Virus record (IMG/VR): IMGVR_UViG_3300037346_000220 | Coordinates: 1-64,000 of that record | Source: a virus | Strand: one strand, 5' to 3' | Length of the DNA: 64,000 nt | In this document: positions 31 to 22,722 of the stretch, in pieces | Position numbering within the stretch: position 1 is the stretch's first letter | Layout: the number at the start of each line of letters is the position of its first letter | Position numbers and translations under genes: made by a program | The notes under the pieces: generated by a model | Databases searched by the model: none | What the model was told of the DNA's origin: nothing | Seen by the model: the letters and a program-made list of their open reading frames with translations, nothing else

Positions 31-726
31 TTGCTACCTCCCGAACCTGCCTCATGGCATATCCCAGAGTGGTACAAGAGTTTGGCTAAGTTTGAAAGAT
101 CAAACAGTGAAAAACAACTCTTCCCCGTAAACCACATAGGCACAGATGGCGCAGCCGTTGCAACAAAGCAATGCCCCCCATTCTTAGATGCTATGACAGC
201 AGGGTATCTCTACGTCCTAGAGGATGATCTAACAGTAGACATCGCAGACAACGGCCAACCAATACTCAGCTGGACAAAAGAACTGTTGCTGATTGACCAG
301 AGACCAACTCTAGAGCTACCAGTTCCTTATGGACATCATCCAATACACTACGGGTTTAAGATGAACTGGCATTACGAGACCCCACCAGGTTACTCTGTAC
401 TGATCACCCATCCGATGAACAGGTATGACTTGCCATTTACTGTGCAGTCAGGAATTGTAGAGTCCGACATCTGGGGACTACCTGTCTTTACAGCTTTTTT
501 CTTAAAGCTTGGTTTCCGTGGAGTGATCCCAAAGGGAACTCCTCTGTTCCAATTTATGCCATTCAAGAGGGATAACTGGGAAATGGATGTCAAGGACAAT
601 CACGAAGACATAGAGAAAGCAGACTTCGCTGCCGAGAGAAGGCGTATAAAGATTCATGGATACTACAAGTGGTTCGCATGGAGAAGAAAGATCTTTAGGT
701 CCAAGGAACCTAGGAGCCGAAAGTGA
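31..726 (+). CDS. Conserved phage beta-fold protein (DUF6065/dUTPase-like fold); probably starts upstream of the window
   Basis: Motifs KQCPPFLDAMTAGY, TPPGYSVLITHPMNR, IPKGTPLFQFMPFKR; paralog at 59278-59967; frame is open back to position 1. Confidence 0.6.
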   Translation: MLPPEPASWHIPEWYKSLAKFERSNSEKQLFPVNHIGTDGAAVATKQCPPFLDAMTAGYLYVLEDDLTVDIADNGQPILSWTKELLLIDQRPTLELPVPYGHHPIHYGFKMNWHYETPPGYSVLITHPMNRYDLPFTVQSGIVESDIWGLPVFTAFFLKLGFRGVIPKGTPLFQFMPFKRDNWEMDVKDNHEDIEKADFAAERRRIKIHGYYKWFAWRRKIFRSKEPRSRK

Positions 727-1580
727 AGAGAGAGCAAGACGTAATCTGTGTAGTTATCTATAGCTACAAAAGCTCAAACCTTTTAGACGTAGTAGAAACT
801 TTATATAAGAACACCTCTAACACTTCAGTGCTAGCAGTCACGGTATATGACCAACATCAGCTAAACAGAAAAGCAAAGTTCGAGGACTATGATCTCATGA
901 GCTATGAGCATGTGTTCTGGGATCACATGTATAGCCCTATAACCTACAAGAAGAAACATTCACAGCTAAATATGAATGAGTACATTCTGTTTATCTCTGA
1001 TGACGTAATGCTTCCAGTAGATTGGGACGTAACCTTAAAGCAGTTTATCAACGGTAGAGATGACATAGTAGTGTCAGGCTCAGGGAAGGCCTCAGTATCT
1101 ATAGAGGGGAAGTACTTTCTTAAGAATACCCCATCACATTCTGATAGCTTCTCTGTCTCAAACTATATAGATAGAAACCTTATCTTCTCTAAGGGTAAGC
1201 TATTTCATAAGCTAGAGTTTCCTACGTCGCTAAAGTACCTTGGTGAAGAAGAGTTCTTGTCTGTTGAGGTTATTAAGAACCAGGGAACAATCTTCTCATG
1301 TCCTTCAGATTTTTATGTAGACCTAGGAGTTAGAACTCTGGAGAATCTATACTGCCCCTTCTCTATAGAACACCACTACAATCAGTTCGTAGACTATGTC
1401 AAAAATCCTGAGGAAGACTTAGATCCAGTCACGGCCTTCTTTTCTTATCACAACCTAGACCCAAAGGAACTTAAGAGATTAGTGTATCAAATTGATGACG
1501 TGCTGTATGACCCTAACACAATGGAGATAGTAGACATTGGTGGAGAAAGATACGTAGATCACGTCAAGTCAATCTTCTGA
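723..1580 (+). CDS. Glycosyltransferase-like protein (GT-A fold, degenerate)
   Basis: N-terminal VVIYSY strand, YILFISDD (DxD-like) and GEEEFLS segment; context of modification genes. Confidence 0.5.
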   Translation: MKREQDVICVVIYSYKSSNLLDVVETLYKNTSNTSVLAVTVYDQHQLNRKAKFEDYDLMSYEHVFWDHMYSPITYKKKHSQLNMNEYILFISDDVMLPVDWDVTLKQFINGRDDIVVSGSGKASVSIEGKYFLKNTPSHSDSFSVSNYIDRNLIFSKGKLFHKLEFPTSLKYLGEEEFLSVEVIKNQGTIFSCPSDFYVDLGVRTLENLYCPFSIEHHYNQFVDYVKNPEEDLDPVTAFFSYHNLDPKELKRLVYQIDDVLYDPNTMEIVDIGGERYVDHVKSIF

Positions 1581-1605
1581 TCCGTGCTATAATTATAAAA
1601 GAGAG

Positions 1606-2214
1606 GTGACCATGCCAAACCACATACACATCATAGATAATTTTATTACTGAAGAAGACGCTTTGGTAATGATAGACGAGCAGAACAATCCGTCTCAGAC
1701 TAAGCCCTACCCAGAGTACTATGCAGATAGATTTGGGGGAACAAACTTTCCATACAATGATCGTATCATGGAGATGCTAATTAAGTATGGCCACAAATCC
1801 AATGATGTGCATAGAGACCAGAATGGATTCGTAAACCCTATCTATGTATTCAAGGGCTTCGGCTCTAAGTGGAACAACGGAGCAAAGGGTGGCCTGCACA
1901 CGGATGCTCAAGATCCAGAGACATTCATAGAGTGGTCAACCATAATCTATTTGACAGATCCAGCTCAGTACGACGGAGGAGTTATATACTTCCCTAACCA
2001 AGGCCTTGAGTACAAGCCAAAGAAGTATTCAGCGGTATTCTTTCCTAGCGCAGGCACAGAGCACGTACACGGAATAACTCCTGTTACAGGAGGAGACAGA
2101 TACACTTGCCTATACATGCACACCTCATTACCAAAGCATGCTGATCCAGACTTCCATCCATCTGCCCCAATGGAGACTTGGCAAGCAGGCGAATATCCCC
2201 TAGCAAAGCTCTAG
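1606..2214 (+). CDS. 2OG-Fe(II) oxygenase, prolyl-4-hydroxylase-like
   Basis: HTD iron ligands, IIYL..YDGG.IYFP, distal HGITPV..G.RY. Confidence 0.85.
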   Translation: MTMPNHIHIIDNFITEEDALVMIDEQNNPSQTKPYPEYYADRFGGTNFPYNDRIMEMLIKYGHKSNDVHRDQNGFVNPIYVFKGFGSKWNNGAKGGLHTDAQDPETFIEWSTIIYLTDPAQYDGGVIYFPNQGLEYKPKKYSAVFFPSAGTEHVHGITPVTGGDRYTCLYMHTSLPKHADPDFHPSAPMETWQAGEYPLAKL

Positions 2215-2217: not shown

Positions 2218-3132
2218 ATGTTTAAGGACACTCAGAACTCTCCCCAGCGCATGGAGAAGTATGGAAAAGACCAAAAGTCTTACCAGTCTTCAGAACTTAA
2301 GAGCAAAGAAAATAAAGATCTAATAGATAGAACATTTAAAAACCTGTCTGAGAAGAACCCCCAGGAGATAGGGGCTAACAGGGCAAGCCCATTCTCTGTT
2401 TATATAACTAACCAATACTGCAAAGAATATGGTATCAGCTTTGAGAAAGATCTGTACAACTTAAATGCTCAGGGTCTAAGGTCCGAGGAGTTCACGGCTA
2501 CTCACGAAGGTAGGCATATACTTTTCGCAGGCTGCTCTGTAGCTTTTGGAGAGGGGATTCCTCTAGAGTATTCTTGGGCACACAAGGTATACAGTGAGAT
2601 CTCAAATACGGAAAAGACTTCTGGGTATTTTAATGTTGCTCAAACAGGGGCCTCCTCTAATTTTATAATTATTCAGGTTTTGAAGTATATAGAAAAGTAC
2701 GGGGTACCAGACTCTTTGTTCGTAATGTTACCAGATGCACAGAGAGAGCATGGATACTCTGAAAACCCAGAGTTAACACAAACCTTAACGGCAAATCTCT
2801 ATCAGCTGATGTACGATCGCATTGTAAATAAAGGTGGAGATGTGATCACCTGCACATGGGATGATAGAATTAACGATGGGTACATGGGTAAAGACTTAGC
2901 CCTAGAGACTGATGCTCGTAAAGCAATACCAGGGCTCTACAAGTTCGATACCGTAAAGCATAAGCACAAGCACATGTTTGATTACGACAAAGATTATCAG
3001 AGAGTTGGCCACTGGATAGAGAACCACATTCTCCACGCCATGGATGATGGTCACCCTGGTACAGCTGAGCATGACTTTTACTATAACTTTATGTACGGGG
3101 TATACAAGAAGATCACAGAGGACAAGTCATGA
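2218..3132 (+). CDS. SGNH-hydrolase-like protein
   Basis: AGCSVAFGEG block I, GASS, C-terminal DDGHPG; paralog at 40963-41853. Confidence 0.55.
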   Translation: MFKDTQNSPQRMEKYGKDQKSYQSSELKSKENKDLIDRTFKNLSEKNPQEIGANRASPFSVYITNQYCKEYGISFEKDLYNLNAQGLRSEEFTATHEGRHILFAGCSVAFGEGIPLEYSWAHKVYSEISNTEKTSGYFNVAQTGASSNFIIIQVLKYIEKYGVPDSLFVMLPDAQREHGYSENPELTQTLTANLYQLMYDRIVNKGGDVITCTWDDRINDGYMGKDLALETDARKAIPGLYKFDTVKHKHKHMFDYDKDYQRVGHWIENHILHAMDDGHPGTAEHDFYYNFMYGVYKKITEDKS

Positions 3133-3218: not shown

Positions 3219-4655
3219 ATGATCATATTGGGGATTAACGAAACGACGCATGATGCTTCAGCTACTCTTATCAGCGATGAGAGAATACTGTTCGCAGGCC
3301 ACGCAGAAAGATATAGCAAAGAAAAGAATGATTGGTTTATCAACAAGGAGCTAATAGATAACGCTTTGCAGTATGGTAAGCCAGAGCTCATAGCTTACTA
3401 CGAAAAGCCAAAGCTAAAGAAGCTTAGGATAGCCACCCACGGTGGCCTTGGCGGTGACGAACCAAAGTTCTCACAGCACCCAGCCCTGGAGGGAATACCA
3501 GTAAAGTATTTTAAGCATCACTACTCTCATGCAGCTGCAGGGTACTACACGAGCAAGTTTGACGATGCTGCAATTGTAGTCCTTGACTCTATCGGAGAGT
3601 TTAACACTTCAACTATCTGGGCTGGCGAGGGAGAGATCATAAGGAAAGTCTATGGCAAGAACTACCCATTTAGTTTTGGACTGTTCTACTCAGCATTCAC
3701 ACAACTCATAGGGCTAAAGCCTAACGAGGAAGAGTACATCCTGATGGGCATGGCAGCTTATGGAGATGCAAATAAGTATTACAGTAGGGTAGCAGAGTAC
3801 TTCCCCAGAACCTTTAAGCAAAAGTATAGCTTTCATAAGGGCATCTATGACTGGGGAGACGTAGGGTCTACTGCCAATAAGTATGATATCGCAGCAGCCG
3901 TTCAGAAAGTTTATGAGGACAGGCTAAGAGAGTTCATGAGGTTTGCCTTAAAGAAAACTGGAAAAAGTAATTTAGTATTCATGGGCGGCTGCGCACTGAA
4001 TGCGTCAGCTAACACCCTGCTGTGGGATATATTCTCAAATGTTTGGATCATGCCTAATCCAGGTGACGCTGGTAGCTCTCTAGGGGCTGCAGCAGCAGCA
4101 TACGGTAGGCATCTATCATGGGAAACTCCATACCTAGGAACAAACCTAAGGGGCAAGTATCCAGTCAAAGAAGCTTTAGCAGCAATACTTTCGACAGGCG
4201 TTGCCCCCGTTGCCAATGGAAGAGCAGAGTTCGGACCAAGAGCCCTAGGAAACAGAAGCATTCTGGCAGACCCCAGAGACCCTAACATAAAGGATAAGGT
4301 CAATAAGATAAAGAAGCGTGATAGATTTAGGCCCTTCGCCCCAGTAGTTTTAGAAGAGCATGCCAGTGAGTGGTTTGACCTGCCAGCCACGTCTCCTTAT
4401 ATGCAGTACACGGTGAAGTGCTTGCAGCCTTCTAGGGTCCCCTCTGTGGTCCACCATGACGGTACGTCCAGGGTACAAACAATTAACCGTAAACAAAACC
4501 CAGGTCTCTATGACCTCATAAAAGAGTTCTATAGGAGAACAGGTGTCCCCATGCTTCTAAACACTAGCCTAAACGTAAAAGGTCAGCCTCTACTTAATGA
4601 CGAGCATGATATAATTGAATGGGAAAAGGCCTATGGCCAGAAGGTGATAAGGTAA
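3219..4655 (+). CDS. Carbamoyltransferase (NodU/CmcH/TobZ family)
   Basis: HDAS, ERYSKEK, HHYSHAA, GGCALN, PGDAGSSLGAA, EFGPRALGNRSIL, RPFAP, NTSLN. Confidence 0.95.
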   Translation: MIILGINETTHDASATLISDERILFAGHAERYSKEKNDWFINKELIDNALQYGKPELIAYYEKPKLKKLRIATHGGLGGDEPKFSQHPALEGIPVKYFKHHYSHAAAGYYTSKFDDAAIVVLDSIGEFNTSTIWAGEGEIIRKVYGKNYPFSFGLFYSAFTQLIGLKPNEEEYILMGMAAYGDANKYYSRVAEYFPRTFKQKYSFHKGIYDWGDVGSTANKYDIAAAVQKVYEDRLREFMRFALKKTGKSNLVFMGGCALNASANTLLWDIFSNVWIMPNPGDAGSSLGAAAAAYGRHLSWETPYLGTNLRGKYPVKEALAAILSTGVAPVANGRAEFGPRALGNRSILADPRDPNIKDKVNKIKKRDRFRPFAPVVLEEHASEWFDLPATSPYMQYTVKCLQPSRVPSVVHHDGTSRVQTINRKQNPGLYDLIKEFYRRTGVPMLLNTSLNVKGQPLLNDEHDIIEWEKAYGQKVIR

Positions 4656-5314
4656 TGAGCAACATAGAATTCGAAGTCTTAGACTTAGGCTTAGTCTTAT
4701 ATCGTAAGATGATTCCAAATGCAGGGAAGGTTATAGTCCTAGCTAATAGCCTTGCAGAAAGATTCGTAGCTGGAGAGCACGGAGACAGTTACACGAGGAT
4801 AAAAGACTGGGAACCTTGGTGGGATGATCACATGCCAAAACCATTCAACCATAAGTTTTATGTATATAGACACAGGGATATTTCTGATAACGATTACTAT
4901 AGGAAAGAGTTAATAGAGATCGCAGATTCACTCTACGGATCACTAGACACTGCTTTAGAACACTACTTTACCTTATATCCCTGGGCAAGGGCTTCCGTAA
5001 AAGGGGAGGAGCAGCTTGACGGCATTCTCAGATATGATGAAGACGGTGGACACCTCCCAGCTCATCAAGACCTTGGTGTCAGCAGCCGTCTAATCTCAAC
5101 TGTTAGCTACTTAAATGACAATTACGACGGTGGAGAAATAGAATTCAGGCAGTCAAACGTAGTCATTAAGCCAGTAGTAGGAGACATAGTCTTCTTTCCA
5201 TCAAACTATCTGTACGTACATGAGGTTATGGCCACAAAAAATGGTACCAGATATTCAATGCCTCACTGGTTTCACAGCCAAAAGAAGATCCAGGAGTCAA
5301 CTGGGGAAGAGTAG
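4655..5314 (+). CDS. 2OG-Fe(II) oxygenase, prolyl-4-hydroxylase-like
   Basis: HQD, SYLNDNYDGGEIEF, FPSNYLYVHEV...GTRYS; start moved to the ATG overlapping the upstream TAA. Confidence 0.88.
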   Translation: MSNIEFEVLDLGLVLYRKMIPNAGKVIVLANSLAERFVAGEHGDSYTRIKDWEPWWDDHMPKPFNHKFYVYRHRDISDNDYYRKELIEIADSLYGSLDTALEHYFTLYPWARASVKGEEQLDGILRYDEDGGHLPAHQDLGVSSRLISTVSYLNDNYDGGEIEFRQSNVVIKPVVGDIVFFPSNYLYVHEVMATKNGTRYSMPHWFHSQKKIQESTGEE

Positions 5315-10232: not shown

Positions 10233-11303
10233 ATGACACTTCACAGGCAAACCCCTTATCTTAAGCCAGAGTACAATGATCCTAGGCCAGATCACGTATC
10301 CCTGAACATCATGAAAAAAGAGCTAACCTTTAACATGGATAAGCTCTTTGAATTATCCTCTACTGAGGGAGTGATTATCAGTGACGTAAAAGAAGATTAT
10401 GTAGAACCTTACGATTACGTTTTCCTGGGGCAAGACGTAAAGATAGTTTCGGTAATAGCACCATCTTTGAGCCACATAATAGAAGACACCCTTTCGGATT
10501 TACTCAGAATGGCCTCCTGGTTCCCCAAGTCAGAGATTGTGTTCGTTGATAATGGAATAGAAAAGGCTAAGCATCATGAGCCAAGAGAAGGATTGCTAAG
10601 GAATAACTCACTATTGGATTCTCTCGAAAAAGCCTTAGTATTGCAAGGTCATAGAGTTAGTTACATTACAGCAAGCGAGAAGACCAGGGTATCAATAGAC
10701 AACTTCGTAATATCTAGCCCCTCCAGGTCACCTCATGGGGATTTCAAAGGTTTCTTGCAGAAGTTCTTTGGACTCAGGTTAACCTCAGAACTTTTTAGAT
10801 CTACATTCGTAACTGACCATGCAGACCCCACAGAGAAAATCTATGTCAGCAGGTCAAAGACCACACCAAGAGATGTGAGTGTCAAGAATAGTCCACACGC
10901 AGATAACTCTTTCATCCTTGACGATGTAAGGCTTTACAATGAGAAGCTGCTAGAAGAATATTTTAAGTCCTTGGGGTTTGTCATTGTTTATGCAGAGGAG
11001 TTTGAGTCCTATGAGGATCAGGTTAGGTTCTTTGCCTCGGCTAAAGTGATAGCAGGAGTAACAGGCGCAGGCTTGTGGAATGCCTTGTTCATGAAAAGTG
11101 GAGGTTTAGTCTTAGAGATATCTACCCCATTGGCAACTTCAGATAATGGGTCCCCAATGGTTGACTATCACCCTCACTACGCCACCTTGGCCTACGCAAT
11201 GGGGATGAACTATCTAGCTATTCCTTCTAGTCTAAGACACGGTAGCGAAATTGTAGACAAAATAGAAAATAATCTTTTTTTAAGAAAGTCACTAGAATGT
11301 TAG
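10233..11303 (+). CDS. Glycosyltransferase family 61-like (DUF563)
   Basis: KIYVSRS, R.YNE..L...F..LGF.IV..E....DQVRFF..AKVIAGVTGAGL.NALF. Confidence 0.8.
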   Translation: MTLHRQTPYLKPEYNDPRPDHVSLNIMKKELTFNMDKLFELSSTEGVIISDVKEDYVEPYDYVFLGQDVKIVSVIAPSLSHIIEDTLSDLLRMASWFPKSEIVFVDNGIEKAKHHEPREGLLRNNSLLDSLEKALVLQGHRVSYITASEKTRVSIDNFVISSPSRSPHGDFKGFLQKFFGLRLTSELFRSTFVTDHADPTEKIYVSRSKTTPRDVSVKNSPHADNSFILDDVRLYNEKLLEEYFKSLGFVIVYAEEFESYEDQVRFFASAKVIAGVTGAGLWNALFMKSGGLVLEISTPLATSDNGSPMVDYHPHYATLAYAMGMNYLAIPSSLRHGSEIVDKIENNLFLRKSLEC

Positions 11304-11334
11304 TTCGTGGACTCTTGTGGTGTATACTTGTCTT

Positions 11335-12177
11335 ATGGAATATATAACTAGAAGCTTCACAAAAATCTCGGTAGAAGATTTTATAGTAACAAAAACATCC
11401 ACCAACGTAGATAAGCTCAAATCTGAGTATGCTTACTACCAAGAGATTCCAGAGACCTACCATATCTTCTTCGCAGTAGGAAGAGACTTTAAAGAAGGTC
11501 TTGATTCCTGTAGTTACATCATGAACCTAATTCCAGGCAACGACTTTGGACATCATTATGCCCACGACACTCTGACGTATAACATGGTGCAAGGCCTTTT
11601 CCCAAGAATAGATGAGTTCAAGTCACAGACTTATACAGAGATAGAGCTCCCAATGCTATTTTCTAAATCTCATGACCTAATCGTAAACAAAGCTAAGGCA
11701 AGGTCAGAGGAACTATCTATATTATCATCTGGGAAGTATGACACCCTCACCGAGGACTACGTAGCAAGAATAAGAAAAGCTTTTGAAAGCTTATTCATGA
11801 ATAAAAGAAAAACCTTCCGAACTGTCTTATCTCACGGAGATCTATGCTTCTCCAATATCCTTGAAGACACAACCTTTATCGACCCCAGAGGCGTCGAGAG
11901 CATGCACTTAGACGAGTACTACGATCTAGCAAAGCTAAGCCAAAGTATTCTAGGTGGTTACGACTTTATCGTTCATGGTAAGGATATAGTCATAGACGAA
12001 GAGCTTAAGGAAATCTTTATTTCTTTCTTAGAAGAAAAAGAAATCTGCTATGACCTTCTTAGGCTATATGAAGCATCCCTGTTTCTTTCTATGTGTCCTA
12101 TTCATTACGAAAATACTTCTCATGTAGATCAATTTCTGACTAGGGCAGGGGAGATTCTTACAGAGATAGGTCATTAG
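11335..12177 (+). CDS. Aminoglycoside/choline-kinase-like phosphotransferase (capsule-biosynthesis type), leaderless
   Basis: HGDLCFSNI, FIDPRG, YYDLAKL; TATACT at 11323-11328. Confidence 0.8.
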   Translation: MEYITRSFTKISVEDFIVTKTSTNVDKLKSEYAYYQEIPETYHIFFAVGRDFKEGLDSCSYIMNLIPGNDFGHHYAHDTLTYNMVQGLFPRIDEFKSQTYTEIELPMLFSKSHDLIVNKAKARSEELSILSSGKYDTLTEDYVARIRKAFESLFMNKRKTFRTVLSHGDLCFSNILEDTTFIDPRGVESMHLDEYYDLAKLSQSILGGYDFIVHGKDIVIDEELKEIFISFLEEKEICYDLLRLYEASLFLSMCPIHYENTSHVDQFLTRAGEILTEIGH

Positions 12178-12860
12178 TGAACATCCTATTACTGATGTCT
12201 GGAGAAGGATCTAGATTCTTTGATAGTGAATACACTCTTCCAAAGCCCTTAATTATAATCGATGGCAAGCCAATGTATCAGCTGGCCCTAGAAAGCCTAG
12301 GTCTAAAAGGGGAGCTGATTCTTGTCTCCAGAAAAGGTTTTGGATTATCCTTAGTTGACTGGGGAATGCCCACTACGATCATCGAGGTAGAATCAACGAC
12401 ATCTGGGCCAGCCACGAGTGCCATGTTAGCAGAAGATCTAATAGACAGTGACGTGCCACTAGTAATCCTTAATGCTGACCAGATAGTTGAATGGGACTCC
12501 TCAATATTAAAAGACATCACTACCGATGGGGCATTACTTCTTTTTAAATCCTCTGGAACCCGATGGTCATATGCTGATGTGGTGGGGGATAGGATCGTAA
12601 AGGTTGTAGAAAAACAAGAGATTAGTCATAATGCCCTAGCAGGAGTCCATTACTGGAAGAGAGGTAGTGACTTCGTAAGGTACGCAAAGAGAATGTTTGC
12701 GGCTAGAGACAGCTACCAGGGGGAATACTACGTTGCCCCCGTATATCAGTATGCCCTCAATGATGGTTTAAGCATATCCCCAGTCTTTGTAGATCGGATG
12801 CATGACTTGGGTACTCCAGAAGCCTTAAAAATATACACCAAAACTCTTAACGAGTCATGA
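12177..12860 (+). CDS. Sugar-phosphate nucleotidyltransferase-like protein
   Basis: MSGEGSRF...PKPLI, NAD, EKQEIS, EYYVAPVY, LGTPE. Confidence 0.85.
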   Translation: MNILLLMSGEGSRFFDSEYTLPKPLIIIDGKPMYQLALESLGLKGELILVSRKGFGLSLVDWGMPTTIIEVESTTSGPATSAMLAEDLIDSDVPLVILNADQIVEWDSSILKDITTDGALLLFKSSGTRWSYADVVGDRIVKVVEKQEISHNALAGVHYWKRGSDFVRYAKRMFAARDSYQGEYYVAPVYQYALNDGLSISPVFVDRMHDLGTPEALKIYTKTLNES

Positions 12861-12872: not shown

Positions 12873-13142
12873 ATGTCAGAAAACTTAGATAAGCAGTCCC
12901 CATGCTGGGATGGATACGTCCAACGAGGTATGAAGCCAGGAGCAAACGGTAAGCAAGTCCCAAACTGTGTACCTGCAACGAAGTCATACAGCGGAGACGA
13001 AGATGATGCCCCAGAGGGATATCACCGCATGCCAGATGGATCATTGATGGCTAACGAGGACCATGAAGATGACAAGTCATTGTTTGCAGGATTGGGAAAA
13101 GACTTTACACGATCAAAGAGTTTGACAGAAATCTTTAGATAA
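12873..13142 (+). CDS. Small phage protein with CWxGY...VPNCVP and GYHRMPDG motifs, leaderless
   Basis: Motifs recurrent in large phages; TATAAT 6 nt before the ATG. Confidence 0.7.
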   Translation: MSENLDKQSPCWDGYVQRGMKPGANGKQVPNCVPATKSYSGDEDDAPEGYHRMPDGSLMANEDHEDDKSLFAGLGKDFTRSKSLTEIFR

Positions 13143-13716
13143 AATCAATATTAATAGCTACCCGAAAGTCTGACTCAATAGGCGCACTTGGCGCATGGTA
13201 AATATTACCATCAAAGACTACAGCCTTACCAGCTTCTGGGGTAACAGCTTGGTCAATGGTAAAAGTTTCAGGAGCTTTCTTACCCTCCTGGTATTTTTCG
13301 TTAAATAGGTAGGTATCACCATCAGCGTCATTTATATAGTACAGGAAGACCTTATGCTCTGCATCGGAATCAACGTGAGGCATCTGCCACTTCCCTAGAC
13401 TATCTTGGTGAGCTCTAGAGACGAAGTTTATCTTTATCCTCTGAACTTCTCTGCATTTAATTCCATGCTTATTCATAAATGAGTTTAGCAAGCTCACGAT
13501 CTTAGGTCTAAAGGGGTGATTTGGCCCAACGATAGACACCATCATGGGGTGCTCATATACCTTGTCGCCTTTGTCAGTAGCAAAGCCCCGATCCTCATCA
13601 ACAATGTTGCTGGCAGGAGCAAAGATCCACTGGAAGTAGGGGTGCCATCCGAGAACAGCAGCGGAGATTTCATTCTTTAGGTCTTGGTTTCCAAAATCTT
13701 TATCAACAGTAATCAT
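13135..13716 (-). CDS. 2OG-Fe(II) oxygenase-like protein
   Basis: PHVD, LYYINDADGDT, FDG.IYHA, RVAINI. Confidence 0.8.
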   Translation of the reverse strand: MITVDKDFGNQDLKNEISAAVLGWHPYFQWIFAPASNIVDEDRGFATDKGDKVYEHPMMVSIVGPNHPFRPKIVSLLNSFMNKHGIKCREVQRIKINFVSRAHQDSLGKWQMPHVDSDAEHKVFLYYINDADGDTYLFNEKYQEGKKAPETFTIDQAVTPEAGKAVVFDGNIYHAPSAPIESDFRVAINIDFI

Positions 13717-13981: not shown

Positions 13982-14545
13982 TCAGTCGTGAAAACCTATA
14001 GATATTGAGCATCTGGGCATTAAACTTTTAACACTATGAACAACACCACTAGGAATGTAAACCATGTCACCAGGCCTGATAGTCCAAGACTCTTCTACCT
14101 CTCCGTAATAGGCTGTCCACAGAGTTTCTCCAACACACTGGAAGAACATTCCGTCTACAGGGTCAGAGTGAATTGTCGCAGACATCATGGTTGGGGTAAA
14201 GTCTCTGGGCTTTTTCTGTGGATTAGATGATGTAAACTTTTGGTAGAAGTTATCGGCTTCGGCTGGGATCGAATTGTTAACGCTGTTCTCAAAGTGCGTG
14301 ATAGCCAAGACAGCTATTAGATCTCCAGGGTGCCTTTCGTTTGCCATGGATAAGAGGTCATCAAAGACTTCCGTCAGAGCCTCGGCACTGTCTACATTAA
14401 ATGTCGCAAAGGATGACCAGCTAACCGATTCTTTTTCCTGGGCAGCATCAAACAAGGATTCAAAATCTGACCATGAGGGAAGGACTTCTGCTAACCCCCT
14501 ATCTACGAATATTTTGCTTTCTTCTTTTGCACTAAAAATGTCCAT
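13982..14545 (-). CDS. JmjC/cupin-fold oxygenase-like protein
   Basis: HSD, QCVG.T.W, PGDMVYIPSGVVHSV, R.SISIG. Confidence 0.75.
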   Translation of the reverse strand: MDIFSAKEESKIFVDRGLAEVLPSWSDFESLFDAAQEKESVSWSSFATFNVDSAEALTEVFDDLLSMANERHPGDLIAVLAITHFENSVNNSIPAEADNFYQKFTSSNPQKKPRDFTPTMMSATIHSDPVDGMFFQCVGETLWTAYYGEVEESWTIRPGDMVYIPSGVVHSVKSLMPRCSISIGFHD

Positions 14546-14586: not shown

Positions 14587-15507
14587 GTGAAAAACATTCT
14601 GGTAACTGGTGCTGCAGGCTTTGTCGGTATGCATACTGTAAGAATGCTCCATAACTTAGGCTATAGCGTTAGAGCTTTAGATAACAAGAAAAATGTAGAC
14701 ACTTCTCAGTGGCCTATAGGAGTTAACTTTATTAGTCAAAGCTTGTTGGAGGATGACGTCTCTCCTCATTTTGAATGGGCGGACTACGTAGTTCACCTCG
14801 CAGCTTTAGCAGGTATGAAGCAGGGTATCTTTAATCCCTATGGGTCAATGCAGAACAACCTAAAGGCTACAGAGATAGTTTCTCTTCTATGCCTCAGGTA
14901 CAATGCAGGACTGTTCTTCTCCTCTACTTCCGAAGTCTATGGTCTTTGTCCAGACGTCCCATTGAGGGAAGACTCTACAAGGATCCTGGGAGGCACGGGG
15001 GATAACCGCTGGGGATACGCAGAGTCCAAGTCCATGTCTGAGCGGTTGCTACTCCTAGACGCAAAAGAACACGGACTAAAAGTTAAGATAGGCAGGCTAT
15101 TCAATGTCGCTGGCCCAGGACAGTCTGGAGAGTATGGGATGGTTATGCCAAGGTTTATTCATGCTGCCAAAAACGATAAGAGCCTTTACGTATATGGCGA
15201 TGGAACGCAGACAAGGTCTTTTTGTCATGTATCAGATACGGTCCGAGGAATATGTGAAGTTATCTTAAAGGGTAAAATAGGGGAAGTGTATAACGTAGGA
15301 AACCCCACAGAGGTCTCCATAAACAACCTTGCCTCAACTGTGATAAGGATGTCGAACTCTCACTCAGACGTAAGGTACAAGGAGTATGAGGAAGTGTACC
15401 CTGGATATACAGAGATTAGCAGACGTGTGCCAGACATCAGCAAGCTTAAGGCTCTAGGCTGGAGCCCAGAGTTCAGCCTTGGTGATATTATCAGGGACCT
15501 GTTATGA
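14587..15507 (+). CDS. NAD-dependent NDP-sugar epimerase/dehydratase
   Basis: GAAGFVG, HLAA, STSEVYG, YAESK, RLFNVAGPGQ, GDGTQTRSF. Confidence 0.95.
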   Translation: MKNILVTGAAGFVGMHTVRMLHNLGYSVRALDNKKNVDTSQWPIGVNFISQSLLEDDVSPHFEWADYVVHLAALAGMKQGIFNPYGSMQNNLKATEIVSLLCLRYNAGLFFSSTSEVYGLCPDVPLREDSTRILGGTGDNRWGYAESKSMSERLLLLDAKEHGLKVKIGRLFNVAGPGQSGEYGMVMPRFIHAAKNDKSLYVYGDGTQTRSFCHVSDTVRGICEVILKGKIGEVYNVGNPTEVSINNLASTVIRMSNSHSDVRYKEYEEVYPGYTEISRRVPDISKLKALGWSPEFSLGDIIRDLL

Positions 15508-16391
15508 GTATCTTTATATCAATTGCCTCATACGAAGACCCAACTCTGGTGAGAACAATCGAGAGAGCTCTTTGGAGGTCAAACAACCCCGAAGATTTGG
15601 TTTTTGGATTGGGATTGCAGTACGAAGAATTGCCAGACCTATCTTCACTTCCCCAGAGTCAGCTAAGGATCCTTTCCTGGAATCCAAGAACTAGGCCTGG
15701 GATAGTCAAAGTGCGTTACGAGATCTCTCAACTTTTTAAAGATGAAGATTACTTCTTGATGATAGACTCTCATATGCAATTTACTCAAGGTTGGGACACA
15801 AAACTCGTATCTGTCATAAAAGAATTGCAGGAGTCTACTAAGACCTACAAAGTTATAGTGTTTCCTTTAGGGCTATACGGAAAAGAGGCTATGTCCTCTA
15901 GGTTCAGAATTGAGCAAAGGACTTCCAAAAAGCTTCCTCTTAATGTAGCTGCCCAACCAGTAAATGGTAGGTACATACCAGAAAAGGAGATAGAGAAGAT
16001 TTCCTTTATGAGGGTAGGGCAGATATTCTTTGACGGTAGGTTTATCAAAGAGGTGGGGCTAGACTCTAGGTCTCAATACAATCAGGAGCAGGCATACCTT
16101 GGCTATAGGGCTTACCTTTCAGGTTGGGACACTTACCAATACCATCAGGACCTTATGACCCACGATGATTCAATCTATGTTGCGTCAATTGATCAGGTAA
16201 AGGCCAAGGAGTTTGGGGCAGTTCCAGAGATCGACGACAGTGATGAAGACATGACGATGGCTTATATATATAATACGGGGCCATACGCAATCCCCAACGC
16301 AGAAAGAACTCCAGACGACTTCTGGTCAGCAAACAGATCTTTCTTTGAGTTTACACGTGCCAAGGCATTGCTAGACAAGCACAATCATTAG
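15504..16391 (+). CDS. Skp1-hydroxyproline GlcNAc-transferase-like glycosyltransferase (GT60/Pfam GlcNAc type)
   Basis: IFISIASYED, A..P..L.FG..LQ, EDYFLMIDSHMQF..GWD, EQ..L..RA...GWD. Confidence 0.8.
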   Translation: MSIFISIASYEDPTLVRTIERALWRSNNPEDLVFGLGLQYEELPDLSSLPQSQLRILSWNPRTRPGIVKVRYEISQLFKDEDYFLMIDSHMQFTQGWDTKLVSVIKELQESTKTYKVIVFPLGLYGKEAMSSRFRIEQRTSKKLPLNVAAQPVNGRYIPEKEIEKISFMRVGQIFFDGRFIKEVGLDSRSQYNQEQAYLGYRAYLSGWDTYQYHQDLMTHDDSIYVASIDQVKAKEFGAVPEIDDSDEDMTMAYIYNTGPYAIPNAERTPDDFWSANRSFFEFTRAKALLDKHNH

Positions 16392-16406
16392 TGGTATACT
16401 TTAGAT

Positions 16407-17009
16407 ATGCAGACTTTAAAAGAAAAACATATAGTTATCCTTTCTGCTCACCCCGATGACCTAGAGATGTCTTGCGGAGGAACAGTTGCAAAATTTGTAG
16501 AAGATGGTAATAAGGTGACTAGCATAGTCATGGCAGGGGGAGTTCCTCACCTAGAGTATCTAAATAGAGCATCGGGTTATCTAGGGATAGATCCTATCAT
16601 ATTTTCCATGTCCAACTCAGTCAAAGTAGACAAAAATGTAATCAAAGAGTTAGAGGCCATGGTTGACTTTTCTACAGTGGACTTAATCATAACGCACTGG
16701 AACGAAGACTGGCACCAGGACCACCAGGCATGTCATGAAATAGGAAATATTTTAGCTAGGAAGCAACCTATGGACCTGTGGTACATGTCTGCTCACCCAT
16801 ACAACCTAAAATATAAGCACTTTACACCAGACCTATATATTGACATTGGTTCATGGTCATACAAGTCCAAGCTCAATGCCGTCAAGGCATACGACAACAT
16901 ACCAAATAAATGGGTAAGGGGAGTCATGCACCATGACGTATGGCGAGGCTCATACCTTGACACCAAGTATGCAGAAGTGTTCGCTGTCGGTAACCAGGTG
17001 ATAAAATGA
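16407..17009 (+). CDS. PIG-L/LmbE family N-acetylglucosaminyl deacetylase
   Basis: SAHPDDLE..CGG, THW..DWHQDH, YAEVF. Confidence 0.92.
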   Translation: MQTLKEKHIVILSAHPDDLEMSCGGTVAKFVEDGNKVTSIVMAGGVPHLEYLNRASGYLGIDPIIFSMSNSVKVDKNVIKELEAMVDFSTVDLIITHWNEDWHQDHQACHEIGNILARKQPMDLWYMSAHPYNLKYKHFTPDLYIDIGSWSYKSKLNAVKAYDNIPNKWVRGVMHHDVWRGSYLDTKYAEVFAVGNQVIK

Positions 17010-18637
17010 TTGTCATGGGGGTAAACCTTTCTCATGACGGTAGCGTCTGTGTTCTAGACAAAGGTAAGGTTGTCTTCTACCAAGAAGAAGAGAGAATCAC
17101 TCACGAGAAGCATACCACTGGGGTAATTCATAGCTTCGTAGCTGGTATGAAGTTTAACCCTACCCACGTCGTCTTTACCGCTGCAACACCGTATGAGATA
17201 AATGCAAAAGATCTTTTTGTAAGATTGATGGGAGCACATGGCAAGCTCAAACACTTTGAGGACTATGTCATGCCAGAGATTCACTTCATGAGAGATCACC
17301 ACTTAGCCCACGCAGCAGCAGCCTTCTACAACTCAGGGTTCGAAGAGGCCTCAGTTTTGGTTGTAGACGGTGCTGGCCAAGCCTTTATCGATGATGAATA
17401 CCTATATAGAGAGACAGAGACTATCTTCTCTGCAAAATATAACAACTTTGACGTAAAGCTAAAAAAAGTAATCAAGCAGCATACCCTACTTAACTACCAG
17501 CAGCTTTCTGGAGAGCTGGTAGACAAGACCTACCTTTCTCCATGTGCTAGCCCATTGCCTATTGAGTATGAAGTCAAGGTCCACGACGCAGATATGAGCA
17601 TTGGCAAGATGTTTAGTAAGGCTGGTATTGACATCTTTGGAGACTATCACCAAGCAGGCAAGGTCATGGGTCTATCGGCATACGGGATAGACCACAAGGA
17701 GGATCCAAGAGCTTTTATAGAAGACGATGCTAACCCAGAAATATTTACACATGGGATGTCTAACGAGGACCTGGCTTTTAGGATTCAGAACGACTCTCTA
17801 ATCCCCATAGTTAACTTAGTTAGAGAAGCATTAGATAACTCAAAACACGATAACGTTTGCCTCTCTGGAGGATACTTCCTTAACTGTGTGAATAACTACA
17901 AGCTGCTAAAGCTATTCCCTCATGCAAACTTTTACATAGAGCCTAACTCCTCGGACGCAGGAACTGCCTTGGGGGCAGCAAAGTATTGGTGGCACATGCT
18001 TAGCGGAGACCACGATATAAGGGAGCTTGAGACCCTATACCTTAGTAGCCCAGCCGACCACAGATTTGATTCGAGAGACATAAGAGACATCGTACAGGCT
18101 TCGCCCAAAGACGTGGCAAAGCTTCTTTCCGAGAGAAACGTGGTCGCCATATATCAGGGCAAAGCAGAAGCTGGACCAAGGGCCCTCGGCAATAGGTCAA
18201 TACTTTATGACCCAAGAGACAGAGATGCAAGAGATGTTCTCAACATGATCAAGAAGCGTGAGAGCTTTAGGCCTTTTGGAGGCACTGTGCTTGAAGAGAA
18301 GGCATGTCAGTGGTTTGACATGTACACACTAAAGTCTAGCCCCTATATGCTGTATGCTGTTGACTCCCAGGAAGGGACCGCAGCACTTATCCCAGGGTTA
18401 ATGCACAACGACGGAACTTCTAGGATACAGACCCTTAATGAGAGTCAGAACCCGAACTATCATGCTTTAATCAGTGAGTTTGACAACCTTACGGGTGTTC
18501 CTATGATCTTAAATACATCGTTTAACCTAGCTGGAGACACTCTGGTTCAAACAATGGACGATGCTATAAGAACATGTCTTCAGTCTGGGATCCCATACCT
18601 TTATTGTCCAGAGATCGAATCAATAATTACGTTTTAA
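17006..18637 (+). CDS. Carbamoyltransferase (second copy)
   Basis: SHDGS, EEER, HHLAHAA, VDGAG, AGKVMGLSAYG, EAGPRALGNRS, NTSFN. Confidence 0.95.
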   Translation: MIVMGVNLSHDGSVCVLDKGKVVFYQEEERITHEKHTTGVIHSFVAGMKFNPTHVVFTAATPYEINAKDLFVRLMGAHGKLKHFEDYVMPEIHFMRDHHLAHAAAAFYNSGFEEASVLVVDGAGQAFIDDEYLYRETETIFSAKYNNFDVKLKKVIKQHTLLNYQQLSGELVDKTYLSPCASPLPIEYEVKVHDADMSIGKMFSKAGIDIFGDYHQAGKVMGLSAYGIDHKEDPRAFIEDDANPEIFTHGMSNEDLAFRIQNDSLIPIVNLVREALDNSKHDNVCLSGGYFLNCVNNYKLLKLFPHANFYIEPNSSDAGTALGAAKYWWHMLSGDHDIRELETLYLSSPADHRFDSRDIRDIVQASPKDVAKLLSERNVVAIYQGKAEAGPRALGNRSILYDPRDRDARDVLNMIKKRESFRPFGGTVLEEKACQWFDMYTLKSSPYMLYAVDSQEGTAALIPGLMHNDGTSRIQTLNESQNPNYHALISEFDNLTGVPMILNTSFNLAGDTLVQTMDDAIRTCLQSGIPYLYCPEIESIITF

Positions 18638-18944: not shown

Positions 18945-19010
18945 CAGCAAGTAAGCTTTAAGATATAATAGAAACCTTACACAAATAACCTTAACGAGAG
19001 ACTAAGATTA

Positions 19011-19553: not shown

Positions 19554-19556
19554 TTA

Positions 19557-20270: not shown

Positions 20271-20290
20271 GATAGATCAAGAGGGATAGG

Positions 20291-21391
20291 TTGACTGTAG
20301 TTGCGATCATAGGACTTGGTTACGTTGGGCAAGCACTGGCGAACCGTGTGTCAAAAGTCAAAGGCTTTAGTGTTATAGGTGTAGAAAAGAGCAAAAGTGT
20401 TCTACTACCTATGATGTCAGATGGCCTTGGGTACTCCGTTACCTCAGACATCAATGATGCAAAGAACGCTGACGTCTTTGTCGTATGTGTGGCTACTCCA
20501 TTATCTGGAGAAGACTACGTAGCCAAAGCAGCGCAGGAGATAGCTTCTGTAGCAAAAGAGGGGGCTCTAGCTATCCTAGAGTCCACGGTAGGAATAGGGG
20601 TAACCGAAAAGATCTTCTTCCCACCACTAACTAAAGCAGGAGTCTTAGTAGCCTATTCACCAGAACGAATTGATCCAAGCTCTGAGAAGTATAACATTAG
20701 TAATACTACTAAGGTTGTATCAGGAGCTACGCCTTTAGCCTTAAAAGCAGCTATGGCTTTCTATACTAAGTTTATTAAGAAAGTTGTTAGCACCAGCGAC
20801 GTAAGAGTTGCCGAAGCAGCAAAACTTCTGGAAAATTCTTACAGGCTTCTTAATGTATCTTTTATCAATGAGTTTGCTAGGTCTTGCCTTGCTGCTGGGA
20901 TAGATTCAAGTGAAGTCATTCAGTTGGCAAGTACCAAGGAGTTTGGATTTCAAGCATTCTATCCTAGTGCTGGCGCTGGTGGCCACTGCATCCCAGTTGA
21001 TCCTGAGTTCTTGTCTAACTATATGAGGGAACTTGGAGTACCAATTACTCTTCTCGAAACAGCCATAGAGATTAATGACTCAATGCCTAATGAGATTGTA
21101 GATGATCTTAATAAGAAGTTCAACGGACTACAGGATAAGAAGATCTTAATTGTAGGTATGTCATATAAGGCTAATACTGATGACACCAGGAACTCTTCAG
21201 GTAGTCAGATATATAACCTAATGAAGCACCTTGGGTATGATGTCAAGTGGCATGACGAAGTAGTTAAGACTTACGGAACAACTAAGTCTGTAAAGCCATC
21301 TAACAGCTTTGATGTAGTCCTTGTGACTGTGAGGCATGAAGAGCTGCACCTATCTATGATTAGTGAGTCTAAGATAGTTTCTTATGCGTAA
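20291..21391 (+). CDS. UDP-N-acetylhexosamine/nucleotide-sugar 6-dehydrogenase
   Basis: GLGYVG, CVATP, LESTV, SPERIDP, AEAAKLLEN, GGHCIPVDP, YK.NTDD.RNS. Confidence 0.93.
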   Translation: MTVVAIIGLGYVGQALANRVSKVKGFSVIGVEKSKSVLLPMMSDGLGYSVTSDINDAKNADVFVVCVATPLSGEDYVAKAAQEIASVAKEGALAILESTVGIGVTEKIFFPPLTKAGVLVAYSPERIDPSSEKYNISNTTKVVSGATPLALKAAMAFYTKFIKKVVSTSDVRVAEAAKLLENSYRLLNVSFINEFARSCLAAGIDSSEVIQLASTKEFGFQAFYPSAGAGGHCIPVDPEFLSNYMRELGVPITLLETAIEINDSMPNEIVDDLNKKFNGLQDKKILIVGMSYKANTDDTRNSSGSQIYNLMKHLGYDVKWHDEVVKTYGTTKSVKPSNSFDVVLVTVRHEELHLSMISESKIVSYA

Positions 21392-22065
21392 TGGTCTTCT
21401 ATAAAATCAGTTACAACCCATGGCTCATGCTCAAAGCAAGCCTCAACAAGAACCTCAAGGTCTGCTCCTAGCTGTCCTGGAAGGCTGTGACCGTAATCTT
21501 CCCCAAAGTCAAAGATAAATACATTGTCCTGTATCGGGAAGTTGGCAATTTGAACCATGTCTTCTTCATCACTACTGGCAAAGATGTAGTAGTTCGTCTC
21601 CTCCTGAAAGTATCCCTCCAGGCTAGGTACTTTCCATTCGCTAATGCTCTTGGTGTAGAGAGCTAGGAGATAGCTATTATCCTGCAAGAATTCTGGCATA
21701 ATACTATACTGCGGTGTGACAGCTACTACAGAATGGATCTTAAAATACTTTGAAAGAACGGTAGCTAAGAATCCACCCATACAAAACCCAATAGCTCTGA
21801 CATCCTTATCTACCAGATGTGGAGACAAAGTATCTATGATCAAGTTCCAGTCAAGCCTATTGCCATAAGAGCTAGTCTTATCAATTAGGAACACTGCCTT
21901 GCCATCCTTGGTAGAGGTTTTTACAAACTCTTCCTTAGAGAATTCTTCACCAATCCTGGGGGTGCTAGAGATAGAGACAGTGACGACTTCGGTGTCTCCA
22001 TCTATCATGCTTATTCTACAGAAGTCATCCTCGAATAAAGTTATAATTTCTTTCTTTAATTCCAT
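21382..22065 (-). CDS. Alpha/beta-hydrolase-like protein
   Basis: GFCMGG nucleophile-elbow-like motif, PQ, C-terminal GH. Confidence 0.55.
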   Translation of the reverse strand: MELKKEIITLFEDDFCRISMIDGDTEVVTVSISSTPRIGEEFSKEEFVKTSTKDGKAVFLIDKTSSYGNRLDWNLIIDTLSPHLVDKDVRAIGFCMGGFLATVLSKYFKIHSVVAVTPQYSIMPEFLQDNSYLLALYTKSISEWKVPSLEGYFQEETNYYIFASSDEEDMVQIANFPIQDNVFIFDFGEDYGHSLPGQLGADLEVLVEACFEHEPWVVTDFIEDHYA

Positions 22066-22107
22066 GACTTTATTATAACAGAATACTTGACATGGTATAA
22101 TTGTTAC

Positions 22108-22722
22108 ATGATTAAAGATTACGGTAATGGAATAGTTAACACCCTGGACTTCGTATCATACGAGGACTCCATGGAGATCAGTGCCTGGATAGATACTAAT
22201 ATAGATAACTTCTTAATCTATGAATTTCAAAACAATCCAGACAGGCATGCTATTAGATTTGGTAAAGATCAAATATTCTGGGATACGTCTCCTCACGACA
22301 TACGTGGGGTAGAGGATATCGAAAAAACATGTAGACCATACTTCAAGAAGGTAACGGAGCATCTTAAAAAGCTGTACAACGATGACTCAGATCTCTTCGT
22401 CAACTCCTTCTGGCTAGCTAAGCAAGACGCTGGTGGCTTTGTAGGACCTCATCATGACTCTCACTCTGGAATGAACCCACAGTTTAAGTACAGTGTGATC
22501 TGCTATCTTAATTCAAACCCAATAGATGGAGAGTTGGAGTTTGTAAGCTTAGGGTTTGGGATTAAGCCACCTGCTGGCTCAATGGTTAGCTTCCCATCAC
22601 AGGGGGAAAACCTAGACCATGAGGTAAAGGCCATAAGTCAGGAGAGGTACTCTATGCTATTCTGGGTTACTGATAACCCTGACTACGAAGTTAAGTGGCA
22701 CAGCGATGTGTGCCCATCGTAA
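22108..22722 (+). CDS. 2OG-Fe(II) oxygenase, prolyl-4-hydroxylase-like, leaderless
   Basis: HHD, CYLN...GELEF, FPS...HEV...ERYS; TATAAT at 22096-22101. Confidence 0.85.
   Translation: MIKDYGNGIVNTLDFVSYEDSMEISAWIDTNIDNFLIYEFQNNPDRHAIRFGKDQIFWDTSPHDIRGVEDIEKTCRPYFKKVTEHLKKLYNDDSDLFVNSFWLAKQDAGGFVGPHHDSHSGMNPQFKYSVICYLNSNPIDGELEFVSLGFGIKPPAGSMVSFPSQGENLDHEVKAISQERYSMLFWVTDNPDYEVKWHSDVCPS

Follow-up and report, generated by a model that had tools for sequence, protein, structure and literature searches.

What does a tailed phage do with three oxygenases of the prolyl 4-hydroxylase (P4H) type, a glycosyltransferase of CAZy family GT60, and a suite of enzymes that make and tailor sugars? The question is raised by the stretch of DNA analyzed here (the window), which covers positions 1 to 64,000 in the 111,267-bp genome of an uncultured virus (IMG/VR record IMGVR_UViG_3300037346_000220, rated complete); genes are named below by their first position in the window, and their coordinates are collected in Table 1. 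The first-pass annotation had proposed that proline is hydroxylated to hydroxyproline (Hyp), that Hyp receives N-acetylglucosamine (GlcNAc), and that the glycan is then tailored on virion fibers. Much of this scheme stands, namely the GT60 membership of the transferase, the P4H type of the oxygenases, and their coupling by adjacency and fusion; the FGFTP repeats that it had named as a target have lost weight. Because hydroxylase and GT60 are coupled, the modeled oxygenase fold is closest to prolyl hydroxylases, and partner genes for DNA modification are lacking, a chemistry in which a side chain is hydroxylated, receives an N-acetylhexosamine (HexNAc), and is tailored is supported. We regard it as an evenly balanced proposition that the phage encodes a cytoplasmic, post-translational protein modification system composed of P4H, GT60, and tailoring enzymes, with its own appendage proteins as the most likely acceptors.

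The transferase encoded at 15504 had been likened to Gnt1 from its IFISIASY start and DSH motif, and a hidden Markov model (HMM) search with PF11397 places it in GT60 well above the cut-off, with the same result when the whole genome was searched. The IFISIASY start does not vary among 26 GT60 homologues, nor do residues D88, S89, and H90, which correspond to the metal-binding DxH motif of GT-A enzymes, which is common to the GT27 polypeptide N-acetylgalactosamine (GalNAc) transferases. The sole solved relative retrieved with the GT60 profile is the GT27 enzyme ppGalNAc-T9 (E 0.005, aligned across DSH), a match that fits the published view of GT60 as polypeptide alpha-GlcNAc-transferases related to mucin-type enzymes (PMC8724618; PMC6939170). 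The acceptors of the characterized GT60 enzymes are the Hyp of Skp1 or the Thr of mucins (PMC6939170; PMC8724618), and 15504, a GT60 member by its sequence, is predicted to transfer HexNAc to a polypeptide. The profile matches at least 519 loci of viruses and 492 of bacteria, so that homologues are plentiful, and a tblastn search with this GT60 of 50,697 deposited phage genomes gave zero matches. The transferase at 723, previously listed as a second GT-A enzyme, is probably not a generic member of that class but a diverged relative of GT60; it has no Pfam match, and the DSH position reads SDD here and SPD or TPD in relatives.

All three genes named as P4H-like oxygenases (1606, 4619, and 22087) exceed the PF13640 cut-off of 27 bits, and 21 of the 25 oxygenases of the phage and its relatives match this family. 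The iron triad and the basic 2-oxoglutarate (2OG)-binding residue of the HxD...H...R signature (H149, D151, H201, and R211) are invariant in all 25. Profile searches were needed because single-sequence searches with the GT60, 4619, and 22087 retrieved no PDB entry; for 1606, Prolyl 3-hydroxylase 1 ranks first among the PDB matches by sequence. The oxygenase family profile matched P3H1 (1e-13) and the P4H of Bacillus anthracis (5e-11) ahead of NgTET1 (4.7e-9) and PHD2. The fold comparison was made with 4619 alone (AlphaFold2 [AF2] model, pLDDT 89.7), for which all 49 of the listed top Foldseek matches are prolyl hydroxylases, including the B. anthracis P4H, PHD2, Dictyostelium PhyA (rank 4; 6t8m), the Pseudomonas EF-Tu P4H, and vCPH of chlorovirus PBCV-1. 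VIA-align, a structure aligner independent of Foldseek, gave Z scores of 15.5 to 16.7 to the prolyl hydroxylases TaPHD, PPHD, vCPH, PHD2, PhyA, and CrP4H, against 13.2 for AlkB and 11.6 for NgTET1. Pfam membership, conserved residues, and the modeled fold of 4619 thus support assignment of the three to the P4H type, with hydroxylation of peptidyl proline as the predicted activity.

The link between hydroxylase and GT60 is genetic. Neighborhoods were compared across related viral loci (L numbers) after fresh calling of open reading frames (ORFs), together with two complete relatives, G001 and G002 (110.9 and 116.9 kb). A P4H-like gene lies at most 300 bp from a GT60 gene in 10 related viral loci and in at least four arrangements: ThyX-P4H-GT60, GroES-...-P4H-GT60, GT60-P4H, and GT60-like(723)-P4H. 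The last is the arrangement of this window (723/1606), and its order is kept in L021, L023, L043, and L045; orthologues of 22087 stand directly upstream of GT60 in L011, L013, L014, L015, and L019. A divergent PF13640/PF11397 pair occurs among housekeeping genes in the chromosomes of 10 SAR86 gammaproteobacteria and is a candidate bacterial hydroxylation-glycosylation system. In addition, an HMM built from the phage oxygenases recognizes a P4H-like domain in 13 of 33 long GT60 proteins, with one to four GT60 domains each, among them an alphaproteobacterial protein from a metagenome-assembled genome and a protein of the haptophyte Prymnesium. The complete relatives carry 4-5 GT60 and 3-4 PF13640 genes. 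Adjacency in differing architectures and fusion of the domains argue strongly that hydroxylase and transferase share a pathway, as PhyA and Gnt1 do.

Some details of these loci can be recorded alongside. The SAR86 loci are L104-L115, L132, L160, and L167 (for example L105:5335-7458); in these streamlined genomes the P4H/GT60 pair is followed by a MazG-type pyrophosphohydrolase gene, with UvrD and an RpiR regulator flanking. The fusion proteins (P0121-P0131, P0136, and P0139) are 760-2,030 amino acids long and combine tandem GT60 domains and the P4H-like domain, often with an AhpC/TSA peroxiredoxin and GT2. Other GT60 fusions carry PF10250 protein O-fucosyltransferase domains or an epimerase.

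The closest precedent is the Skp1 pathway of Dictyostelium and Toxoplasma, in which the prolyl 4-hydroxylase PhyA acts before Gnt1 of GT60 (PMC6939170). Both systems pair a cytoplasmic PF13640-type hydroxylase with a soluble GT60 that keeps DSH, PhyA is among the top structures for 4619, and coupling of the PhyA/Gnt1 type is seen in the 10 viral and 10 SAR86 adjacencies and the 13 fusions. The phage differs in having several hydroxylase/GT60 pairs where the Skp1 pathway has one, and many phage GT60 genes have no hydroxylase partner. The extending enzymes PgtA (GT2/GT74) and AgtA/Gat1 (GT77/GT8) are absent, GT61 being the sole further transferase in Pfam scans of the cluster, and in their place stand GT61, PIG-L, and carbamoyltransferase genes. 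To our knowledge, Skp1 is not expected in bacteria or phages; Skp1 domains were not searched for here. The phage system resembles the PhyA/Gnt1 pathway in its working, yet it is no member of that pathway as defined.

Initiation of mucin-type glycosylation in Trypanosoma cruzi and Dictyostelium uses the same family on Thr in Pro/Thr/Ser-rich tracts, and proteins with PT repeats precede some phage GT60 genes; unlike the soluble phage enzymes, however, those transferases are eukaryotic Golgi enzymes and need no hydroxylase (PMC8724618). Among viruses, chlorovirus PBCV-1 and mimivirus encode P4H-fold hydroxylases for Pro-rich or collagen-like proteins of their own, namely the prolyl 4-hydroxylase vCPH (PDB 5c5t; Z 16.2 to 4619) and L230, a collagen lysyl hydroxylase/glucosyltransferase (PDB 6ax6; Z 14.0 to 4619); in mimivirus, hydroxylation is coupled to glycosylation (PMC9546862). 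These are giant viruses of eukaryotes, however, and their transferases belong to families other than GT60. Freeman et al. are said to have found in 2023 that mycobacteriophages encode their own glycosyltransferases, which decorate virion proteins (cited in PMC13313380). The phage studied here is alike in having its own transferases, but tblastn found no homologue of its GT60 in the deposited phage genomes; we know of no hydroxylase step described for mycobacteriophages. Our literature search found no description of P4H/GT60 modules in phages or bacteria, nor of such a modification in bacterial viruses. Virus-encoded hydroxylation and glycosylation of proteins as such is already known.

Almost all family assignments of the first-pass annotation were borne out by profile searches. 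Among the sugar enzymes, this holds for GT61, the PIG-L deacetylase, the epimerase-like short-chain dehydrogenase/reductase (SDR) that accompanies the nucleotide-sugar dehydrogenase, and the two carbamoyltransferases, both of which have the Carbam_trans_N and Carbam_trans_C domains. TobZ, NovN, and GdmN are the nearest solved relatives of the two; for 17006, the PDB matches also take in a carbamoyltransferase and range from E 1e-45 to 1e-35. The dehydrogenase 20291 is closest to UDP-HexNAc dehydrogenases, and the best NCBIfam matches of the SDR 14587 are UDP-xylose synthase, LegB, and GalE, all below their cut-offs. Of the predicted kinase-nucleotidyltransferase pair, the nucleotidyltransferase (12177) is clear and the kinase (11317) is a putative assignment from a weak match. 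The two SGNH-like proteins fared unequally: 2218 keeps that label as a lead from Atlas and structure, and its homologue neighbors GT60 in L011, L013, L016, and L043, while 21382 has a weak match to alpha/beta-hydrolases instead. In carbamoyltransferase 1, some 125 positions are missing from the start of the N-terminal domain, and the protein is basic (isoelectric point [pI] 9.1, net charge +10), whereas carbamoyltransferase 2 is full length and acidic (pI 5.4, -22); given this contrast in size and charge, the two may serve different acceptors.

In the pathway that we propose, the Fe(II)/2OG oxygenases 1606, 4619, and 22087 would hydroxylate a side chain, most likely of proline, with hydroxylysine as another possible product. 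The GT60-type 15504 and the diverged 723 would place HexNAc on the new hydroxyl or straight onto Thr or Ser, and the GT61 enzyme may extend the glycan. The kinase and nucleotidyltransferase would activate the sugar, and the dehydrogenase and SDR would yield an oxidized, epimerized, or decarboxylated (UDP-)HexNAc. The order of tailoring that we infer has PIG-L take off the N-acetyl group after transfer to protein, with carbamoylation following; known substrates of PIG-L enzymes are alpha-linked GlcNAc aglycones. Finally, the two carbamoyltransferases and the SGNH-like enzyme would add or remove carbamoyl and acyl groups. A more specific version, which we offer tentatively and consider somewhat doubtful, is that aquatic actinobacterial tailed phages, and via the same two-gene module bacteria like SAR86, carry out a eukaryote-like, Hyp-linked O-glycosylation, which here would place de-N-acetylated, carbamoylated, or uronic HexNAc units on virion collagen-like and tip proteins. 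If true, this would be the first known case of a Hyp-O-glycan in a virus of prokaryotes, and the PhyA/Gnt1 module of protists would have its counterpart, or its origin, in prokaryotes or viruses. Orphan genes for PF13640 oxygenases and GT60-like transferases are common in the metagenomes of aquatic phages. Should the two enzymes act on proteins as a pair that first hydroxylates and then glycosylates, a large class of unexplained phage genes would gain a function, and glycosylation of the Hyp-linked or mucin type would reach beyond eukaryotes and giant viruses to bacterial viruses. Phages may then sugar-coat their own fibers, with consequences for the recognition of hosts, for stability, and for the design of phage tools. 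Simple systems for studying the chemistry are offered by the SAR86 pair and by the multi-GT60/P4H fusion proteins.

Which proteins would be modified is the weak part of the proposal. The most likely acceptors are phage appendage proteins, in particular the collagen-like proteins and the Pro/Ser/Thr tracts of fiber tips. The collagen-like genes predicted earlier are real by PF01391 (Table 1), and the two larger products contain 7 and 5 X-Pro-Gly sites. Their N-termini, here and in G001 and G002, share a conserved K-I-V-P-x-P-G that itself contains X-Pro-Gly sites. Of the other two predicted Pro-rich substrates, 47463 and 54583, each is Pro-rich locally but not overall (7-8% Pro). In L021, a block of 55421-like, cupX, GT60-like, two P4H, and GT60 genes lies directly behind fiber genes and a 54583 homologue with a (PFSFT)n tail; in the genome studied here, one 55421 oxygenase-like gene and one cupX gene lie within the fiber module. 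In L070, L073, L074/L075, and L079, the gene that ends immediately before GT60 encodes a large (TPTPTP)n protein, and these PT-repeat proteins match phrog_15511 alone, a PHROG without assigned function.

Three further details concern these proteins. In the phage and both complete relatives, all collagen-like proteins carry a start motif, (K)-I/V-K-I/V-V-P-x-P-G, directly before the Gly-X-Y repeats; it occurs twice in tandem in 42812, and the collagen genes of the relatives are L169:2765-3469 and L170:2974-3864. Members of the 54583 family have a charge-free, Phe-rich repeat tail whose unit is FGFTP here, PFSFT in L021 (L021:4112-4777), and FSVFGF in G001 (L088) and G002 (L087). The PT-repeat proteins are 570-900 amino acids long, have no P4H nearby, and come from unrelated contigs (L070:8245-9951, L073:7975-9861, L074:7151-9754, and L079:7234-9939).

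A number of results weigh against a system of hydroxylation and glycosylation aimed at prolines of fiber proteins. The P4H fold is also found in lysyl hydroxylases and in small-molecule nucleoside oxygenases (Z 13.3-14.7 to 4619; the nucleoside oxygenases PasI and PolD, 14.5-14.7), so that "prolyl" goes beyond the fold itself. About 55 of 76 GT60-bearing viral loci have no P4H within 10 kb, which means that GT60 has no need of a hydroxylase, and in the P4H-less loci GT60 lies inside a WhiB small-gene module that looks regulatory rather than structural. In the window itself the cluster neighbors ribonucleotide reductase (RNR), ThyX, glutaredoxin, and the WhiB module, with the fiber genes 20-30 kb away. 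The collagen repeats have few prolines at the Y position, most being at X (GPQ). The 54583 homologues of G001 and G002, both of which keep P4H and GT60, have FSVFGF repeats that are poor in proline and nearly free of threonine, and we rejected the FGFTP tail as a conserved proline substrate since its prolines are missing there. In those two genomes, 3-4 paralogues of 55421 stand in tandem behind the tail protein, with a PF13640 gene next in line, so that Pro-poor tails go with more 55421 paralogues than this phage has. As for co-occurrence with collagen or Pro-rich genes, the 10 kb on either side of GT60 are free of collagen-like ORFs in every related locus, and the idea that Pro/Thr-rich proteins track P4H across loci was dropped (Fisher p = 0.33). 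Among whole records, collagen is present in G000, G001, and G002 and absent from two fragments, a distribution that does not discriminate. Finally, 10 of the 25 oxygenases have weak Tet_JBP matches (best E 2.5e-5).

That last result bears on whether the cluster could modify the phage's DNA, the oxygenase forming a 5-hydroxymethyl-pyrimidine that a GT-A enzyme glycosylates and a carbamoyltransferase carbamoylates, with epimerase and kinase supplying the sugar (5mYOX/GT-like). In published phage clusters, dioxygenases of the TET/JBP type stand beside transferases of the GT-A or GT-B class, sugar epimerases, and APH phosphotransferases (bioRxiv 10.1101/2023.12.21.572611; PMC13229309), a phage NodU/TobZ-type enzyme carbamoylates 5-hydroxymethylcytosine (PMC8670742), and thousands of candidate contigs lack a TET/JBP annotation (PMC13229309). 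The phage studied here likewise combines 2OG oxygenase, GT-A, epimerase, APH-like kinase, and carbamoyltransferase, RNR and ThyX adjoin the cluster, carbamoyltransferase 1 is basic, and NgTET1 does match the oxygenase profile. Because the enzyme mix is shared, the key question is whether the oxygenases are P4H-like or TET-like, and here the P4H matches are the stronger by sequence and by fold (Z 16.7 versus 11.6); the best Tet_JBP (PF12851) score genome-wide is 12.2 bits, against a cut-off of 34.9. The GT60 motif is the DSH of polypeptide GalNAc-transferases, unlike the R...DDD...EDY/F of JGT-like DNA transferases, the oxygenases and GT60s are acidic proteins with net charges of -8 to -15, and cellular genomes, that of a haptophyte alga among them, also contain P4H-GT60 pairs and fusions. 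A C5-methyltransferase (PF00145), ParB (PF02195), and a ThyA-like hydroxymethylase (PF00303) are missing from the complete genome at E <= 1, and the GT60 and PF13640 genes of the complete relatives outnumber what one DNA mark would need. With the prolyl-hydroxylase fold closer and with no methyltransferase, ThyA-like enzyme, ParB, or bona fide TET/JBP, DNA hypermodification is a weakened but live rival, and an improbable one in our judgment. Modification of host proteins, such as a translation factor or a ribosomal or envelope protein, to take over the host or block superinfection, is unlikely too, although several findings fit it. Two of the structures closest to 4619 are bacterial P4Hs that hydroxylate EF-Tu (4iw3, Z 16.4; 5v7y), a JmjC_2-type oxygenase lies within the cluster, and some 40 small actinophage contigs carry GT60 in a WhiB small-gene module rather than a structural one; that SAR86 bacteria keep the pair in the chromosome among housekeeping genes indicates that cellular acceptors exist. 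Yet 4-5 GT60 and 3-4 P4H paralogues per genome and a large sugar-tailoring set seem excessive for one host protein, the L021 block is embedded in a fiber module, and in other loci PT-repeat phage proteins directly precede GT60.

The cluster might also be a mosaic rather than one pathway, its sugar-nucleotide, deacetylase, and carbamoyltransferase genes altering host-wall or soluble glycans or making an aminoglycoside- or Nod-factor-like molecule independently of P4H and GT60. Aminoglycoside pathways typically hold PIG-L, TobZ-like carbamoyltransferases, and APH-type kinases. The interval is broken up by unrelated genes (an M23/LysM peptidase, the WhiB small-gene module, glutaredoxin, GroES, and ThyX), and gene content varies widely, with GT61, kinase, PIG-L, and dehydrogenase found in just 2-3 related loci. 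Against this, SDR, GT60, PIG-L, and carbamoyltransferase 2 are four contiguous genes, overlapping or tightly spaced (14587-18637), and in L010 and L017 a stretch of at most 11 kb contains PIG-L, carbamoyltransferase, dehydrogenase, SDR, P4H, and GT60. All cluster enzymes are soluble, without transmembrane segments, and the cluster (~107.5-111 kb plus 1-23 kb of the genome) contains no lipid-carrier transferase, flippase, polymerase, or multi-pass membrane transferase, which makes a lipid-linked wall polymer unlikely. We consider a mosaic quite unlikely, and we continue to favor a coupled modification of phage appendage proteins.

Table 1. Features of the phage window discussed in the text (coordinates in the window; genes are named by first position)
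Feature	Coordinates	Strand	Evidence
"cupX" paralogue, not a cupin	1..726	+	19-member alignment; AF2 pLDDT 73, weak dUTPase-like Foldseek matches
Diverged GT60-like GT-A glycosyltransferase	723..1580	+	hhalign vs GT60 alignment 98%, E 1.7e-13
P4H-like 2OG/Fe(II) oxygenase "a"	1606..2214	+	PF13640 35.2 bits; adjoins GT60-like 723
SGNH/GDSL-hydrolase-like protein, lead only	2218..3132	+	Atlas features and structure leads
Carbamoyltransferase 1 (NodU/CmcH/TobZ family)	3219..4655	+	PF16861 184.5 bits, PF02543 121.9 bits
P4H-like oxygenase "b"	4619..5314	+	PF13640 60.4 bits
GT61 glycosyltransferase	10233..11303	+	PF04577 62 bits
Putative APH-type (sugar?) kinase, weak	11317..12177	+	NCBIfam APH(3') E 1.9e-4, far below cut-off
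Sugar-1-phosphate nucleotidyltransferase	12177..12860	+	PF00483 NTP_transferase; weak GlmU/RmlA/MurU-type NCBIfam matches
Possible 2OG oxygenase, weak	13135..13716	-	NCBIfam FlmC-family 2OG-Fe oxygenase, E 1.2e-5, below cut-off
JmjC/cupin-type oxygenase-like protein	13982..14545	-	PF08007 JmjC_2 30.8 bits
NDP-sugar SDR (4-epimerase, decarboxylase, or dehydratase type)	14587..15507	+	PF01370 161.6 bits
GT60 (PF11397 "GlcNAc") polypeptide-HexNAc-transferase-type glycosyltransferase	15504..16391	+	73.9 bits vs cut-off 21
PIG-L/LmbE-family de-N-acetylase	16407..17009	+	PF02585 50.8 bits
Carbamoyltransferase 2	17006..18637	+	PF16861 189.8 bits; Carbam_trans_N and Carbam_trans_C, as in 3219
Nucleotide-sugar 6-dehydrogenase (UDP-HexNAc-dehydrogenase-like)	20291..21391	+	TIGR03026 285.6 bits, above cut-off
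Alpha/beta-hydrolase-like protein	21382..22065	-	Weak DLH match; after GT60 in L010, L017
P4H-like oxygenase "c"	22087..22722	+	PF13640 2OG-FeII_Oxy_3 45.2 bits
Three collagen-like proteins, candidate substrates (inferred)	42812-43852, 43870-44088, 44131-44853	+	PF01391 in 42812-43852 and 44131-44853
PASTA and Cys-rich tip protein with PLPPPPVPS tract, candidate substrate (inferred)	47463..48278	+	PF03793; Pro/Thr/Ser tract
fn3-type fiber-module protein with mucin-like linker and (F-x-F-T/A-P)n tail, candidate substrate (weakened)	54583..55374	+	Sequence
Possible PF13759-type 2OG oxygenase	55421..56092	+	Language-model (Atlas) lead 0.96 alone; paralogue at genome 107531-108121

The genome that houses this cluster is that of a tailed phage, with genes for portal, protease, capsid, DnaB, a DnaE-type polymerase, terminase, and RNR. 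The polymerase and capsid are 55% and 44% identical to those of large Streptomyces siphophages, e.g., Muntaha and Jay2Jay, and an actinobacterial host is suggested by the domains WhiB (8551-8841), PASTA, LysM, and M23; the G+C content is 41-46%. A megablast search of positions 10000-22800 against deposited phages gave zero matches. The ends of the record share an overlap of exactly 127 bp, which indicates a circular assembly in which the genes at 107-111 kb adjoin the start of the window, so that the true start of the cluster, at ~107.5 kb of the genome, lies outside the window.

Three further genes had been listed as oxygenases or cupins. Of these, 13982 is of the JmjC/cupin type, 13135 is weakly 2OG-like, and 55421 is a possible oxygenase by its Atlas lead, with zero Pfam matches; hhalign comparison of 55421 and 13135 with the oxygenase profile gave no match. 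Further Pfam scans of the unassigned ORFs also gave zero matches.

The cupX family has three members in the genome (1-726, 59278-59967, and genome 110387-111109, the last being L005:10387-11106). We considered cupX proteins as cupins or oxygenases and rejected both, because the modeled beta fold is weakly dUTPase-like and no histidine is conserved. Their motifs are IPxWYK, KxCxPxxDAxTxGY, and GTPxxQxxPFKRExW, and they match neither Pfam nor PHROG. Two cupX copies and a gene for a 244-amino-acid protein of no assigned family always precede the GT60-like/P4H genes in L021, L023, L043, and L045, and small phage contigs that are unrelated have as many as three (L056 and L068).

Other neighbors recur as well. 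Genes for a GroES-type co-chaperonin and a glutaredoxin (19266-19553 and 18723-18944) lie between the sugar genes and ThyX, and GroES stands just upstream of P4H-GT60 in L011, L013, L014, and L015. The small-gene module at 6901-10012 consists of DUF7455, four genes of no assigned family, WhiB, and two more genes, and it is common to ~40 loci among L023-L085, many of them on smaller viral contigs, mostly of 5-60 kb. In the smaller phages, homologues of 8831-9088 and 9243-9632 flank an inserted GT60 gene.

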